A DNA stretch of 21,542 nt from a virus (lineage: Duplodnaviria > Heunggongvirae > Uroviricota > Caudoviricetes), in the IMG/VR virus record IMGVR_UViG_2563366943_000015; one strand, given 5' to 3'. This document shows, piece by piece, positions 4,229 to 21,132 of the stretch. The notes under the pieces were generated by a model. It was not told where the DNA came from. It saw only the letters and a program-made list of their open reading frames with translations, and did no database searches. How positions within the stretch are numbered: the stretch's first letter is position 1; each line of letters starts with the position of its first letter. The translations under genes and the position numbers were made by a program.

Positions 4229-4582
4229 GCCCACAAGAAAGCCCCTCCGGAGAGGGGCTAAAGCCGCGTATCTGTATCATCATGCACATGGTGCCGGGTG
4301 CCTCCCGGTAAGTTCAGCCCGGTGCCACTAAACCCGCGTCATTCTCGTTTTGATAATCAGAGATTATACCGTCACCAGTCGCCCCTCCGCTCAGGGGGAT
4401 TCACCATGCCAGTTTCTTTTAACAAACTCCCCGCAAACCAGACAACAGTCAACCGCCTGAATTGTGAGGTATTTAAAAATTTCTCCAGATAACTGATACC
4501 CGGCTAACAGTCTGGCGTTTTCTTTTTCAGCAACGGGAAAGCAACAACCACCACACCCACCAGCCGCCAATTTACCACAAAT

Positions 4583-6523: not shown

Positions 6524-6775
6524 CTAACAGGATGCTCTGACTCGCAATTCATCCGGCAGTTTATCATTTCCCATAATGTCACTTACCCTCATCGGTAAAA
6601 AAATTGCCTTTCGACCATTACGATACATCATTGATTTTGGGATTTCAGGGAAGTAATCCATTTCGACTATAACTGACAGGTCATCACGACGTATGACTGC
6701 GTATTTGCTACTAAATAGTTTCTTTATTTTTTCCACGATGCCTCCAGGTTTATAAGTACAAAAGGTTATATCCAC
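6524..6775 (-). CDS. Hypothetical protein, 83 aa (position equivalent to rem in Qin-type prophages)
   Basis: ORF starts with GTG and has no in-frame ATG upstream; identity not verifiable. Confidence 0.25.
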   Translation of the reverse strand: MDITFCTYKPGGIVEKIKKLFSSKYAVIRRDDLSVIVEMDYFPEIPKSMMYRNGRKAIFLPMRVSDIMGNDKLPDELRVRASC

Positions 6776-6921
6776 ATAGAGACAAAAATATTAATCTGAA
6801 AAATATTTATTTCACGCCGTATATTTGATTATTTAATGTGCAGGTACAATGACTTTTATTTTGTGTTGTGTATATAATCAAATATATGGTTATTTTTCAC
6901 CCTGCGTATTCAGAACGCAAC

Positions 6922-6944
6922 AAAAAACCCGCCGAAGCGGGTTT
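6922..6944 (-). terminator. Intrinsic terminator of the hok transcript
   Basis: Minus strand: aaacccgc-ttcg-gcgggttt followed by a T run; 70-90 nt downstream of the hok stop. Confidence 0.6.
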
Positions 6945-6982
6945 AGTGCGGGTGCGTTGAGGATGCCTGACACATGAGAGGT

Positions 6983-7004
6983 GGCGAGGGATTTCTCCCT
7001 CGCC
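6983..7004 (-). promoter_or_regulatory. Perfect 9-bp stem-loop immediately 3' of hok (hok mRNA 3'-end structure)
   Basis: ggcgaggga-tttc-tccctcgcc, 8 nt downstream of the hok stop codon. Confidence 0.5.
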
Positions 7005-7011
7005 TGGTCTC

Positions 7012-7167
7012 TTACTCCTCAGGTTCGTAAGCTGTGAAGACAGCGACCTCCGTTTGGCCGGTTCGGATTCGTACCTCGCAGAGGTCTTTCCTCGTTACCA
7101 GTGCCGTCACTATGACGGTTAAACAGATGACGATCAGGGCGATTAGCATCGCCTTTTGCTGCTTCAT
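7012..7167 (-). CDS. hok: Hok-family type I toxin (HokD/RelF-like), 51 aa
   Basis: MKQQKAMLIALIVICLTVIVTALVTRKDLCEVRIRTGQTEVAVFTAYEPEE matches Hok/Gef family from memory; RBS AAGGAG 9 nt upstream; an in-frame upstream ATG at 7224 gives a 19-codon mok-like extension. Confidence 0.85.
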   Translation of the reverse strand: MKQQKAMLIALIVICLTVIVTALVTRKDLCEVRIRTGQTEVAVFTAYEPEE

Positions 7168-7727
7168 AGCCTGCTTCTCCTTGCCTTTCGGCACGTAAGA
7201 GGCTAACCTACGTGTGTAGAGCATAGATATGGCCTCAGATTAATGTTAAGCGTCTTGCCGGACGCGTAATGTTAACTGGGGCTTTTCTCTATCTGCCTTT
7301 TGGTGTTCATGCCTGAGACAGATAGCCTCAAGCACCCGCAGTTATTCTACTTAACTAAGATTTCCCCGCAAACCGTTTTTGTCCGGCACAGTAAATATCC
7401 AACTAAACCAATGGCGTTCGCTGTATTTACCGCCAGTATTCAATGCACATGACCGCCATGAACACCCCTAAAAAAAGGGCATTTATATGTCCAAACATTA
7501 ATATCAAAACATCAATTTTTTCCATATACCTTGCTGTGAAGATGATGGGCATACATGATGCGAACAACCAGAACGCAACAAACAAAAACTGCAATGCGTT
7601 TTTCATTATTCCCCCCTACAATCAATGTGCAATAACATTTAAACACACCTCAATTTGGCCGGACATATAAATATCTAAACCAGAAAAAATCACTTACATA
7701 GCGTTACAAACTCTTTAGTCTAAATAT

Positions 7728-8243
7728 TCATCGTAAAACATCCTCCACGCTTATCAGTCCATTTCGTTTCAGGTAATCCATCGCCTTCTCCGGTAATTTG
7801 CAGTCCGACTGAGCTTTTTTCAGTTGACTGACCAGTCGTTTAACCCACATTGTTAATTCGCTAACCTGATTGCCGGATGCTGGTGGATTGTCGGCTTTAC
7901 CCAGAATGGCAGCGCAGCAGGCCTCTCTGAGCACCCAGTCAACAGCATCCTTCCATGCTCCTGTTTCGACTGGCGGATTCTCACGCTTTACCTGTTCATA
8001 AAAGCGCACGGCTTTAACCAGTCCTTCTGATGTCACCGGGACTGGCGGGCCGATGAATAAGGCCTGAATTTCATAGTTCGGCCTGTCGTTACAATCCTCT
8101 TTTGTCGGTACATATTTCCAGTCACCAGCCCACGGCTTCCCCTGAAAGTCTGTAACGTCTTTTTTCACGTAGCGATATCGCCATGCAACTGGTTTTGCCT
8201 GCCCTGCCGTTTCATGCCCTTCCTGATAATTAATCTCGCTCAT
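7728..8243 (-). CDS. Hypothetical phage protein, 171 aa
   Basis: ATG at 8243 overlaps the upstream stop (GAATGA); last gene of the coupled nin-like chain. Confidence 0.55.
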   Translation of the reverse strand: MSEINYQEGHETAGQAKPVAWRYRYVKKDVTDFQGKPWAGDWKYVPTKEDCNDRPNYEIQALFIGPPVPVTSEGLVKAVRFYEQVKRENPPVETGAWKDAVDWVLREACCAAILGKADNPPASGNQVSELTMWVKRLVSQLKKAQSDCKLPEKAMDYLKRNGLISVEDVLR

Positions 8244-14401: not shown

Positions 14402-14627
14402 TGCTATGTGTAGTCTTTGGCGGCATCAGTTCTACTCCGTGGCTGCCCTGCCGCCCCTTTTTAAAGTGAATTTTGTGATGCAGTGAATGCGGCTAAGCGC
14501 ACGCGGCACAGTTAAAAGCATCAGTGTTATGGGTGGATTATCCGGCGTTAATTGTTAACTGGTTAACGTCACCTGGAGGCACCAGGCACCGCATCGACAA
14601 AATTCATTTGTAAAAATGGAGATAATT

Positions 14628-18990: not shown

Positions 18991-19197
18991 ATGACAAAAA
19001 TTATGAGATATGACGATGTTAAACCATGTCCGTTTTGTGGTTGTCCATCTGTTACGGTGAAAGCAATTTCAGGATATTACCGGGCAAAATGCAACGGATG
19101 CGAATCCCGAACTGGCTATGGTGGAAGTGAAAAAGAAGCACTCGAAAGATGGAATAAACGAACTACTGGAAATAATAATGGAGGTGTTCATGTATAA
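18991..19197 (+). CDS. ralR: Restriction-alleviation protein RalR/Lar, 68 aa
   Basis: MTKIMRYDDVKPCPFCGCPSVTVKAISGYYRAKCNGCESRTGYGGSEKEALERWNKR matches Rac RalR from memory. Confidence 0.75.
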   Translation: MTKIMRYDDVKPCPFCGCPSVTVKAISGYYRAKCNGCESRTGYGGSEKEALERWNKRTTGNNNGGVHV

Positions 19198-19378
19198 AAT
19201 TACTGCCACTATTGAAAAGGAAGGTGGCACTCCTACTAACTGGACAAGATATTCAAAATCTAAATTAACGAAATCAGAATGCGAAAAAATGCTCTCAGAA
19301 AAAAAAGAAGCAGGCGTTTCCAGAGAGCAGAAAGTAAAGCTGATAAATTTTAATTGCGAGAAACTTCTGTCCTCGTGA
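19190..19378 (+). CDS. ydaC: YdaC-like small protein, 62 aa
   Basis: MYKITATIEKEGG...; RBS GGAGG upstream; overlaps the ralR 3' end. Confidence 0.55.
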   Translation: MYKITATIEKEGGTPTNWTRYSKSKLTKSECEKMLSEKKEAGVSREQKVKLINFNCEKLLSS

Positions 19379-20808: not shown

Positions 20809-20939
20809 TTTTAACGTAAATGGATTGTTAAATGTATTTTGGTTGTGATATAACCAAAAAAGACCGGAATACAGAAATTCGAGTAAATTTCGGGGAATTT
20901 CGGGAAGACGTTTGCAACTGATTGATTTTAAATACAATT

Positions 20940-21042
20940 AAAAAAAGACCGAATACGATTCCTGTATTCGGTCCAGGGAAATGGCTCTTGGGAGAGAGCC
21001 GTGCGCTAAAAGTTGGCATTAATGCAGGCTTAGTTGCCTTGC
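20940..21042 (-). ncRNA. sdsR: sRNA SdsR (RyeB)
   Basis: Minus strand reads GCAAGGCAACTAAGCCTGCATTAATGCCAAC...CCCTGGACCGAATACAGGAATCGTATTCGGTCTTTTTTT, matching the SdsR sequence as I remember it, including the terminator hairpin plus T7. Confidence 0.7.
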
Positions 21043-21132
21043 CCTTTAAGAATAGATGACGACGCCAGGTTTTCCAGTTTGCGTGCAAAATGGTCAATAA
21101 AAAGCGCGGTGGTCATCAGCTTAAATGTTAAA

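Follow-up and report, generated by a model that had tools for sequence, protein, structure and literature searches.

In the hok/sok (parB) system of plasmid R1, the 5' tail of Sok makes the first contact with its target (PMC1635323), and the truncated hok mRNA is formed by removal of 39 nt, back to a hairpin which acts as a roadblock (PMC1635323, PMC9841398). A mutation of the R1 Sok promoter falls within the dcb element of the mRNA (PMC9841398). Prophage copies of hok/sok have been annotated since the genome of phage 933W (sokW/mokW/hokW), and a PHROG family and an Rfam model exist, as does a tested ortholog with 92% identity to the locus described here. This ortholog, hokW-sokW of Sakai prophage 5 (Sp5), is a working type I toxin-antitoxin system for which neutralization of Hok toxicity by Sok was demonstrated: sokW has complementarity to 71 nt in the leader of hokW, was detected by northern blot, and neutralizes HokW (PMC8621323). 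The disappearance of Sok in Sp5 occurs on RecA-dependent induction (PMC8621323). For the chromosomal copies hokA, hokB and hokC, no post-segregational killing was found in historical tests, and the HokD peptide is toxic upon expression (bioRxiv 10.1101/2025.08.07.668861).

The stretch of viral DNA analyzed in the current study (21,542 nucleotides, called the window) carries at positions 6922-7727 a region which very probably represents a type I toxin-antitoxin cassette, hok/mok/sok of the hokD/hokW subtype, in intact form. We are similarly confident that the cassette is self-contained, with its own promoters and terminator, and that the Rac-like lambdoid E. coli prophage to which it belongs carries it in the nin-like early-right region. 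The positions of the elements, their predicted pairings, conservation and covariation, and the orthology with hokW-sokW were established for this locus. The Hok ORF, the 3' hairpins, the -35 hexamer TTGCCT and the absence of relBE, all named in the original prediction, proved to be real, and its reading of the locus as a 'moron' that encodes a Hok type I toxin and has a folded 3' end was supported; 'moron' is also the category given to the family in PHROGs. The elements of the region are as follows, with hok on the minus strand.

7012..7167, minus strand: hok toxin gene, 51 aa, identified by Pfam, PHROG and identity to K-12 HokD/RelF
7012..7224, minus strand: mok ORF, 70 aa, ATG at 7224, Shine-Dalgarno (SD) sequence GAGG at 7236-7233, in frame with hok
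7344..7371, minus strand: putative hok/mok promoter, -35 TTGCGG at 7371-7366, 16-bp spacer, -10 TAGAAT at 7349-7344, located 7 nt upstream of the mRNA 5' end
6919..7337, minus strand: predicted hok mRNA in full length, about 419 nt up to the U-tract of the terminator, 5' end placed by position 1 of the Rfam model and the conserved GGGUGCUUGAGG
7326..7337, minus strand: tac box GGGUGCUUGAGG at the mRNA 5' end, pairs with fbi, ucb or 7319-7309
7278..7285, minus strand: ucb (anti-SD) box AAAGCCCC, partner is the mok SD (closed folds) or tac (open fold)
7199..7203, minus strand: dcb GCCUC, overlaps the spacer of the Sok promoter beside its -10, forms the SD/dcb hairpin
6983..7004, minus strand: 3' UTR stem-loop GGCGAGGGA-GAAA-UCCCUCGCC, 9 bp with a GAAA loop, presumed exonuclease roadblock by analogy
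6950..6962, minus strand: fbi box CCUCAACGCACCC, pairs with tac over 12 bp and one bulge in the minimum-free-energy (MFE) fold
6919..6944, minus strand: rho-independent terminator, stem 6944-6925 followed by a U run
7181..7209, plus strand: Sok promoter, -35 TTGCCT at 7181-7186, 17-bp spacer, -10 TAACCT at 7204-7209
7216..7286, plus strand: Sok antisense RNA (predicted), 71 nt, placed by alignment to the sokW/sokC annotation
7216-7230, plus strand: Sok 5' tail GUAGAGCAUAGAUAU, 15 nt, single-stranded, with complementarity to the AUG of mok and to the SD-AUG spacer
7231-7283, plus strand: Sok terminator hairpin, 53 nt, followed by a UUUU tail
7427..7606, minus strand: doubtful hydrophobic ORF, 59 aa, preceded by GGGGGGA

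The Hok ORF had been called unmistakable, and this judgment held. The 51-aa peptide is identical to HokD of E. coli K-12 and matched the Pfam family HOK_GEF PF01848 (E=2.9e-23, 81.6 bits against a cut-off of 22) as well as PHROG 251, 'MokW-like host killing' with the category moron (E=7.8e-33). No IS element, frameshift or stop codon was found within the cassette. Annotations were transferred by alignment of the window with 933W, mEp460, 640R1, K-12 hokD, K-12 hokC/mokC/sokC and the R1-type plasmid locus. The annotated starts of mokW (933W) and mokC (K-12) both fall on the mok start at 7224, within the same architecture, and that of hokW falls on 7167.

An antisense sok gene had been expected on the plus strand near 7180..7270, and the same alignments placed it at 7216-7286: sokW of 933W maps base-for-base to 7286..7216, and sokC of K-12 begins at the aligned base 7216. 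The predicted Sok RNA folds with -28.6 kcal/mol and agrees with SokW at 65 of 71 positions, all six differences lying in the 5' tail. Its putative promoter, its terminator hairpin with a U tail and its coverage of the mok initiation region are the features of a cis-antisense RNA. In the loop CUCUACACA, the target of the Sok 5' end, a YUNR U-turn motif was not evident from reading the sequence of this allele.

The plus-strand -35 hexamer TTGCCT (7181..7186) had been proposed as a candidate with a weak -10; the hexamer is present, and the -10 following the 17-bp spacer is TAACCT. A generic sigma-70 scan did not call the Sok promoter because its -10 matches the consensus at just three of six positions. 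The support for this promoter is homology together with published mutagenesis, not consensus strength. The promoter region agrees with that of 933W at 34 of 35 positions, and in hokW-sokW (Sp5, about 92% identical) mutation of the same -10 abolishes the antitoxin activity (primer YO-421, TAACCT to GAGCCG; PMC8621323). Among 71 distinct prophage relatives the -10 reads TAACCT in 56 and TAATCT or TAATC- in 15; 70 of the relatives have a 17-bp spacer.

The same scan called no hok promoter either, and both promoters are weak matches to the consensus. The GTAGAAT of the hok promoter is conserved in 933W, mEp460 and 640R1, and transcription would start at 7337, judged from the conserved leader. The only minus-strand promoter match of the scan, TTAACA-18-TATGCT (7249-7220), is situated inside the leader, overlapping the mok ATG, which is variable, and was treated as a chance match.

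At the 3' side of hok, the perfect 9-bp stem-loop at 6983..7004 that had been noted earlier formed in every fold, and relatives carry compensatory A-U, G-U and G-C changes at 7000/6987, 6998/6989 and 6997/6990. An mRNA cut back to this stem-loop would measure about 360 nt by sequence position, compared with 361 nt for the truncated mRNA of R1. The terminator previously proposed at 6922..6944 is likewise real, with the stem at 6944-6925 and a T run, and is the only terminator-like site within 6700-7900. It is common to K-12 hokD, mEp460 and 640R1 and missing from 933W. The hok mRNA could end at this terminator, or right after fbi as in R1. The 3' UTR was also considered as isrK (31 bits, with an Rfam gathering score of 50) or rsmX, but these hits were sub-threshold and their alignments rested on two generic hairpins.

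Folding of the full transcript had been proposed as a check for tac/fbi pairing, and this pairing was found in the MFE fold. The 419-nt transcript has an MFE of -172.2 kcal/mol (z = -7.84), and none of 100 shuffled sequences folded as well. In this fold nt 1-12 (7337-7326) pair with nt 376-388 (6962-6950) through 12 bp and one bulge, i.e. tac with fbi, and ucb (7285-7278) covers the mok SD GAGG (7236-7233). Sub-fragment folding recovered the metastable 5' hairpin of nt 1-13 with nt 19-29; the tac/ucb stem was recovered when the first 60 nt were folded, and the SD/dcb hairpin (-13.2 kcal/mol) when nt 100-142 were folded alone.

A covariance-model search for Sok had also been suggested. The Rfam model RF01794 ('sok') matched 7337..7162 with 117 bits against a gathering score of 59, but on the hok-sense strand. 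Its consensus structure shows the hok leader in the 'open' fold, with a tac/ucb stem around the 5' hairpin, then a long hairpin, the hairpin of mok-SD and dcb, and a small one ahead of the hok SD; all four helices of the open form were matched. Since the model describes the hok leader fold and not the Sok RNA, a search 'for Sok' finds the hok-sense strand; the match proves a conserved hok leader and does not delimit the ends of the Sok RNA. A family named 'sok' that reports the hok-sense strand can mislead automated antitoxin annotation.

The free energies did not reproduce the published refolding of the closed form into the open one. With ViennaRNA, the open (tac/ucb) form was not the MFE structure of the truncated mRNA; it lay 7.9 kcal/mol above it, compared with 19.4 kcal/mol in the full-length RNA. 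The truncated RNA keeps the metastable hairpin and the ucb/SD pairing in its MFE fold, and the full-length RNA strongly prefers tac/fbi. Thermodynamics as sole explanation of the switch was therefore set aside; with the open form above the MFE of the truncated RNA, the predicted switch draws its support from homology and the Rfam consensus.

The predicted pairs were examined in 71 distinct prophage loci of the hokD/hokW type, which were collected by scanning viral contigs with a 14-nt tac pattern; about 18 chance matches were removed by requiring a Hok ORF. Across 134 predicted pairs 95.9% of the cells were canonical, falling to 35-42% once the 3' partners were slid by 1-3 columns. In all, 25 pairs were altered on both sides, compared with 6.9 on average and at most 12 when the columns were shuffled 200 times, counts which refer to related sequences and to a structure derived from one of the 71. 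Examples of such double-sided changes are present within the 5' hairpin, in the long hairpin and in the 3' stem-loop. The tac/fbi pairing is kept in 99.3% of the cells, where tac is fixed by the search pattern and covariation is not assessable, and ucb is nearly invariant (pi 0.02). The compensatory changes that maintain these RNA pairs argue for ongoing selection. The sequence type of the window is the commonest haplotype among the 71 loci.

The segment 6850-7760 is 100% identical to four RefSeq chromosomes, in which the sole annotated feature within 6922-7727 is a CDS 'hokD'; base-level coordinates of Sok and of every regulatory box are now added to this. The upstream neighbor of the cassette is a 171-aa phage ORF (phrog_660). 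Neither the neighborhood in the window nor the RefSeq annotation of the identical locus contains relBE near the cassette, in agreement with the original prediction, and this absence marks the intact state of the locus rather than an oddity. According to the gene order, the cassette is located between nin-like genes and late genes and is co-oriented with the early-right operon. In the RefSeq copies, hok shares its strand with the cro-like, replication, nin-like, holin and lysozyme genes. The DUF1133 protein had no NCBIfam match as a Q antiterminator, so that the position upstream of late genes is read from gene order. A downstream 83-aa ORF (6524-6775) was considered as a homolog of K-12 Rem, but BLASTP gave no alignment; it belongs to phrog_1813. 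The cassette is found at differing genome positions in 933W, mEp460 and 640R1. The characteristics of a moron were found, namely putative promoters and terminator of its own, sharp homology limits, a site that varies among phages, and the PHROG category, with expression in the lysogen being predicted.

The mechanism described for R1 (PMC9841398, PMC1635323) can be applied to this prophage. The transcript ends, processing, closed-to-open switch, Sok instability, control of toxicity and biological role would then be those of R1 hok/sok and Sp5 hokW-sokW, by analogy. The weak promoter TTGCGG-16-TAGAAT would yield a stable hok mRNA of about 419 nt from 7337, and during synthesis the 5' tac would sit in a metastable hairpin formed locally. 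Once the transcript is complete, tac would pair with the 3' fbi (6962-6950) and ucb would stay on the mok SD, excluding both ribosomes and Sok. Slow 3' trimming to the 9-bp stem-loop (7004-6983) would remove fbi, upon which tac would take ucb and the mok SD would shift into the SD/dcb hairpin, making mok (ATG 7224) translatable; translation of hok (ATG 7167) would be coupled to that of mok. As long as the cell transcribes the prophage, the unstable 71-nt Sok would pair with the mok start region via its 15-nt single-stranded 5' tail, block mok/hok translation and mark the duplex for RNase III. If Sok synthesis stopped, through prophage loss, induction or transcription shut-off, the stored mRNA would yield Hok, which would insert in the inner membrane, and the cell would be killed or lysed.

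It had been proposed that 7225..7727 lacks a convincing ORF and should hold the hok promoter and leader. This is overstated: the leader and promoter occupy 7225..~7380, while 7381..7727 lies beyond the homology and contains the doubtful 59-aa ORF. That the whole of 7225-7727 is regulatory DNA of hok, with a long leader and promoter, is highly improbable, although the segment lies directly upstream of hok and is co-inherited with it in more than 1000 E. coli genomes (6850-7760 was found at a coverage of at least 80% in 1068). The Rfam model and the conserved tac place the mRNA 5' end at 7337, and the homology of the cassette begins at about 7380, with unrelated sequence upstream of this point in 933W and mEp460; 7381-7727 is therefore not hok leader. 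Within the phage collection this stretch accompanies the cassette in only 3 records, compared with 109 for the cassette, and it has the SD-preceded 59-aa ORF of its own. It is a separate AT-rich module. The 59-aa ORF had no Pfam or PHROG family match. Homologs of it were found only in E. coli and Shigella, and in many of them the C-terminus is shifted; it is intact in 14 of 14 distinct viral copies, and its six variable sites show no third-position excess. On the downstream side the homology ends at about 6920-6948, right after fbi in 933W and after the terminator (~6920) in most others.

The hok loci of the K-12 chromosome raise the question whether the present copy is an inactive relic, which like most of them is recognizable but has lost toxin production or its regulation. 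K-12 hokA-E are disrupted or gave no killing in classical tests (bioRxiv 10.1101/2025.08.07.668861), the leader of K-12 hokD is lost, and both promoters of the present locus are weak consensus matches. However, none of the regulatory elements is damaged and all are in register with those of hokW-sokW, which is functional, the reading frame and cassette are uninterrupted by IS elements, frameshifts or stop codons, and the encoded HokD peptide is toxic on expression. The rank of this haplotype as the commonest among the 71 prophage loci and the compensatory changes in the RNA pairs also speak against decay, and a relic is accordingly considered very unlikely. A different matter is whether the same intact machine serves mainly as a helper of lysis and release at induction, as reported for hokW-sokW in Sp5, rather than in prophage maintenance, and this is a real possibility, though short of probable. 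In Sp5, mitomycin C is followed by the loss of Sok, HokW comes up about 1 h ahead of the endolysin, and the phage yield is doubled (PMC8621323), an effect that is modest (2-fold). The trigger could be read-through from pR running against the Sok promoter, and the orientation of hok, shared with the cro-like to lysozyme genes in the RefSeq copies, would fit such a trigger. On the other hand, 933W/Sp5 carries its cassette beside L0134-L0141, outside the nin region, so that a trigger which depends on position cannot be general.

For the intact hok/mok/sok cassette, the only mildly new point is that diversity is concentrated in the Sok 5' tail and the mok start. Among the 71 loci, nucleotide diversity peaks at 7229-7218 (pi 0.37; other 12-nt windows at most 0.20), and across the mok SD-AUG spacer and codons 2-5 of mok the sequences fall into about 20 discrete haplotypes. 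The Sok hairpin and the promoter, which flank the variable tail, are almost invariant. Together with the location of all six SokW differences in the tail, this peak suggests specificity alleles. The idea that the Sok 5' tail and its target (7237-7208) form a diversifying 'specificity cassette' is put forward tentatively, as being rather doubtful at present. If the specificity of recognition lies in this segment, each prophage Sok would protect against its own hok mRNA only; several hok prophages could then co-reside without cross-protection, each cassette being individually addictive. The latest Hok survey did not analyze Sok sequences, and the tail diversity offers a lead on antitoxin specificity among co-resident prophages.

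When compared with known systems, the cassette shares with R1 hok/sok (parB) the logic and the order of elements, namely tac, ucb, mok SD, dcb/Sok promoter, hok, a 3' hairpin that is the roadblock in R1 and presumably in the window, and fbi (PMC9841398, PMC1635323). Mok is in frame in both, and the layout of the Sok promoter is the same (TTGCGC-17-TATCCT in R1, TTGCCT-17-TAACCT in the window). The R1 system differs in being carried by a plasmid rather than a prophage, in its Hok, which shares about 44% identity (PMC8621323), and in its Sok, which is 64 nt with an 11-nt tail compared with 71 nt and a 15-nt tail. The extra length corresponds to an insertion of about 16-18 nt that extends the Sok/sokT hairpin. 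The chromosomal hokC/mokC/sokC (gef) of E. coli resembles the window in its tac box GGGUGCUUGAGGCU, its in-frame MokC (69 aa) and the start base of sokC; it differs in that sokC is 59 nt and lacks the hairpin insertion, in its diverged 3' UTR, and in the IS186 flanking the K-12 copy.

In K-12 hokD (relF, Qin cryptic prophage) the Hok peptide is identical to that of the window, 154 of 156 coding nucleotides are equal, and the two loci have the 3' stem-loop, fbi and the terminator in common; its site is also analogous, in a lambdoid prophage upstream of late-region genes. Unlike in the window, the homology starts only about 18 nt upstream of the hok ATG, where relE abuts, and tac, ucb, the mok start, dcb and sok, all present in the window, are missing. 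The relBE-hokD arrangement of Qin, in which relB-relE replace the hok leader, is not present in the window, where the leader is intact. Of 80 viral contigs whose HokD peptide is identical to this one, 77 carry the tac leader, so K-12 hokD is a truncated exception and the leader-bearing form is the norm in prophages.

The system hokW-mokW-sokW of the Stx2 phages 933W and Sakai prophage 5 (Takada et al. 2021, PMC8621323; AF125520) has 91.8% identity over 90% of a 486-nt query. It has the same 70-aa in-frame Mok, 51-aa Hok and 71-nt Sok, with equal architecture and spacing, and the same Sok promoter, tac, ucb, dcb and fbi boxes and extended Sok hairpin. HokW and Hok of the window are identical at 47 of 51 residues, the C-terminus (TAYEPEE in the window, VDYESEK in 933W) distinguishing the two. 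In contrast to the window, 933W is without the CCCGCUUCGGCGGG terminator after fbi, and its cassette lies toward the right end of the linear record, beside L0134-L0141, rather than in the nin-like region upstream of late genes. The element in the window is of an already known kind, an ordinary and structurally complete copy of hok/sok in a lambdoid prophage.

The Rfam model RF01794 ('sok antitoxin') matched the window at 7162-7337 on the minus strand, i.e. the hok-sense strand. The consensus structure of this model corresponds to the hok leader in its open fold, and the model stops at the hok AUG. An automated annotation relying on this match would assign the antitoxin to the wrong strand and give it 2.5 times its proper length.

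Further matches to RNA families scored above the respective Rfam gathering score:

4229-4438, minus strand, STnc100
14405-14456, plus strand, DicF
19196-19374, minus strand, RalA antitoxin RNA of the RalR/RalA type I system
20936-21080, plus and minus strands, convergent pair RyeA(SraC)/SdsR(RyeB), near the right-hand end of the window

The RalA match means that a second RNA-antitoxin system, ralRA, is present in the window.

The hok 3' UTR (6922-7009, minus strand), which comprises the roadblock hairpin, fbi and the terminator of hok, also matched two Rfam families below threshold, isrK (31 bits, compared with a gathering score of 50) and rsmX (28 bits). Since the alignments are based on two generic hairpins, homology is improbable. 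Other features were recorded around the hok gene:

6524-6775, minus strand, 83-aa ORF downstream of hok, assigned to phrog_1813
6796-6878, plus strand, two promoter-like sites in the 26% G+C spacer directly past the hok terminator
7427-7606, minus strand, hydrophobic, two-helix-like 59-aa ORF with a strong SD sequence (GGGGGGA)

The promoter-like sites are directed antisense into the hok 3' end, the better-scoring one being ATGACT-18-TATAAT (10/12) at 6849-6878; both may be fortuitous, given how AT-rich the DNA is. The 83-aa ORF is unrelated to K-12 Rem. It is uninterrupted in the window, whereas RefSeq record CP166713, otherwise identical, marks it as frameshifted; somewhere between 6452 and 7012, the coordinate offset of the two sequences shifts by 1 nt.

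The 59-aa ORF, a doubtful coding sequence, lies inside the region upstream of hok that the original prediction had described as ORF-free. It is not annotated in RefSeq, matched no Pfam or PHROG family, and showed no codon-position bias at its variable sites. Its relatives are confined to E. coli and Shigella, and their C-termini are often frameshifted. In phage 933W (L003, 955-1425), a different ORF, L0139, ends about as far upstream of the hok promoter as the 59-aa ORF does in the window, and by eye the C-termini are loosely alike (…VVYSICRWR* and …VMCIEYWR*).

Within hok, the Tyr47 codon is found in a conserved UACG context (7026-7029, minus strand). A recent preprint described TadA A-to-I editing of hokD mRNA at the equivalent position, changing Tyr to Cys, which would supply a second cysteine for a disulfide.

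Variability along the hok transcript, compared over 71 distinct prophage loci, was highest at 7208-7237, where pi reached 0.37 and about 20 haplotypes were distinguished; in the rest of the transcript pi did not exceed 0.20. This segment holds the 5' tail of Sok on one strand and, on the other, the target of that tail, i.e. the SD-AUG spacer of mok together with codons 2-5 of mok. The variants may be specificity alleles. All six differences between this Sok and SokW, the annotated Sok of phage 933W, fall within the same segment.
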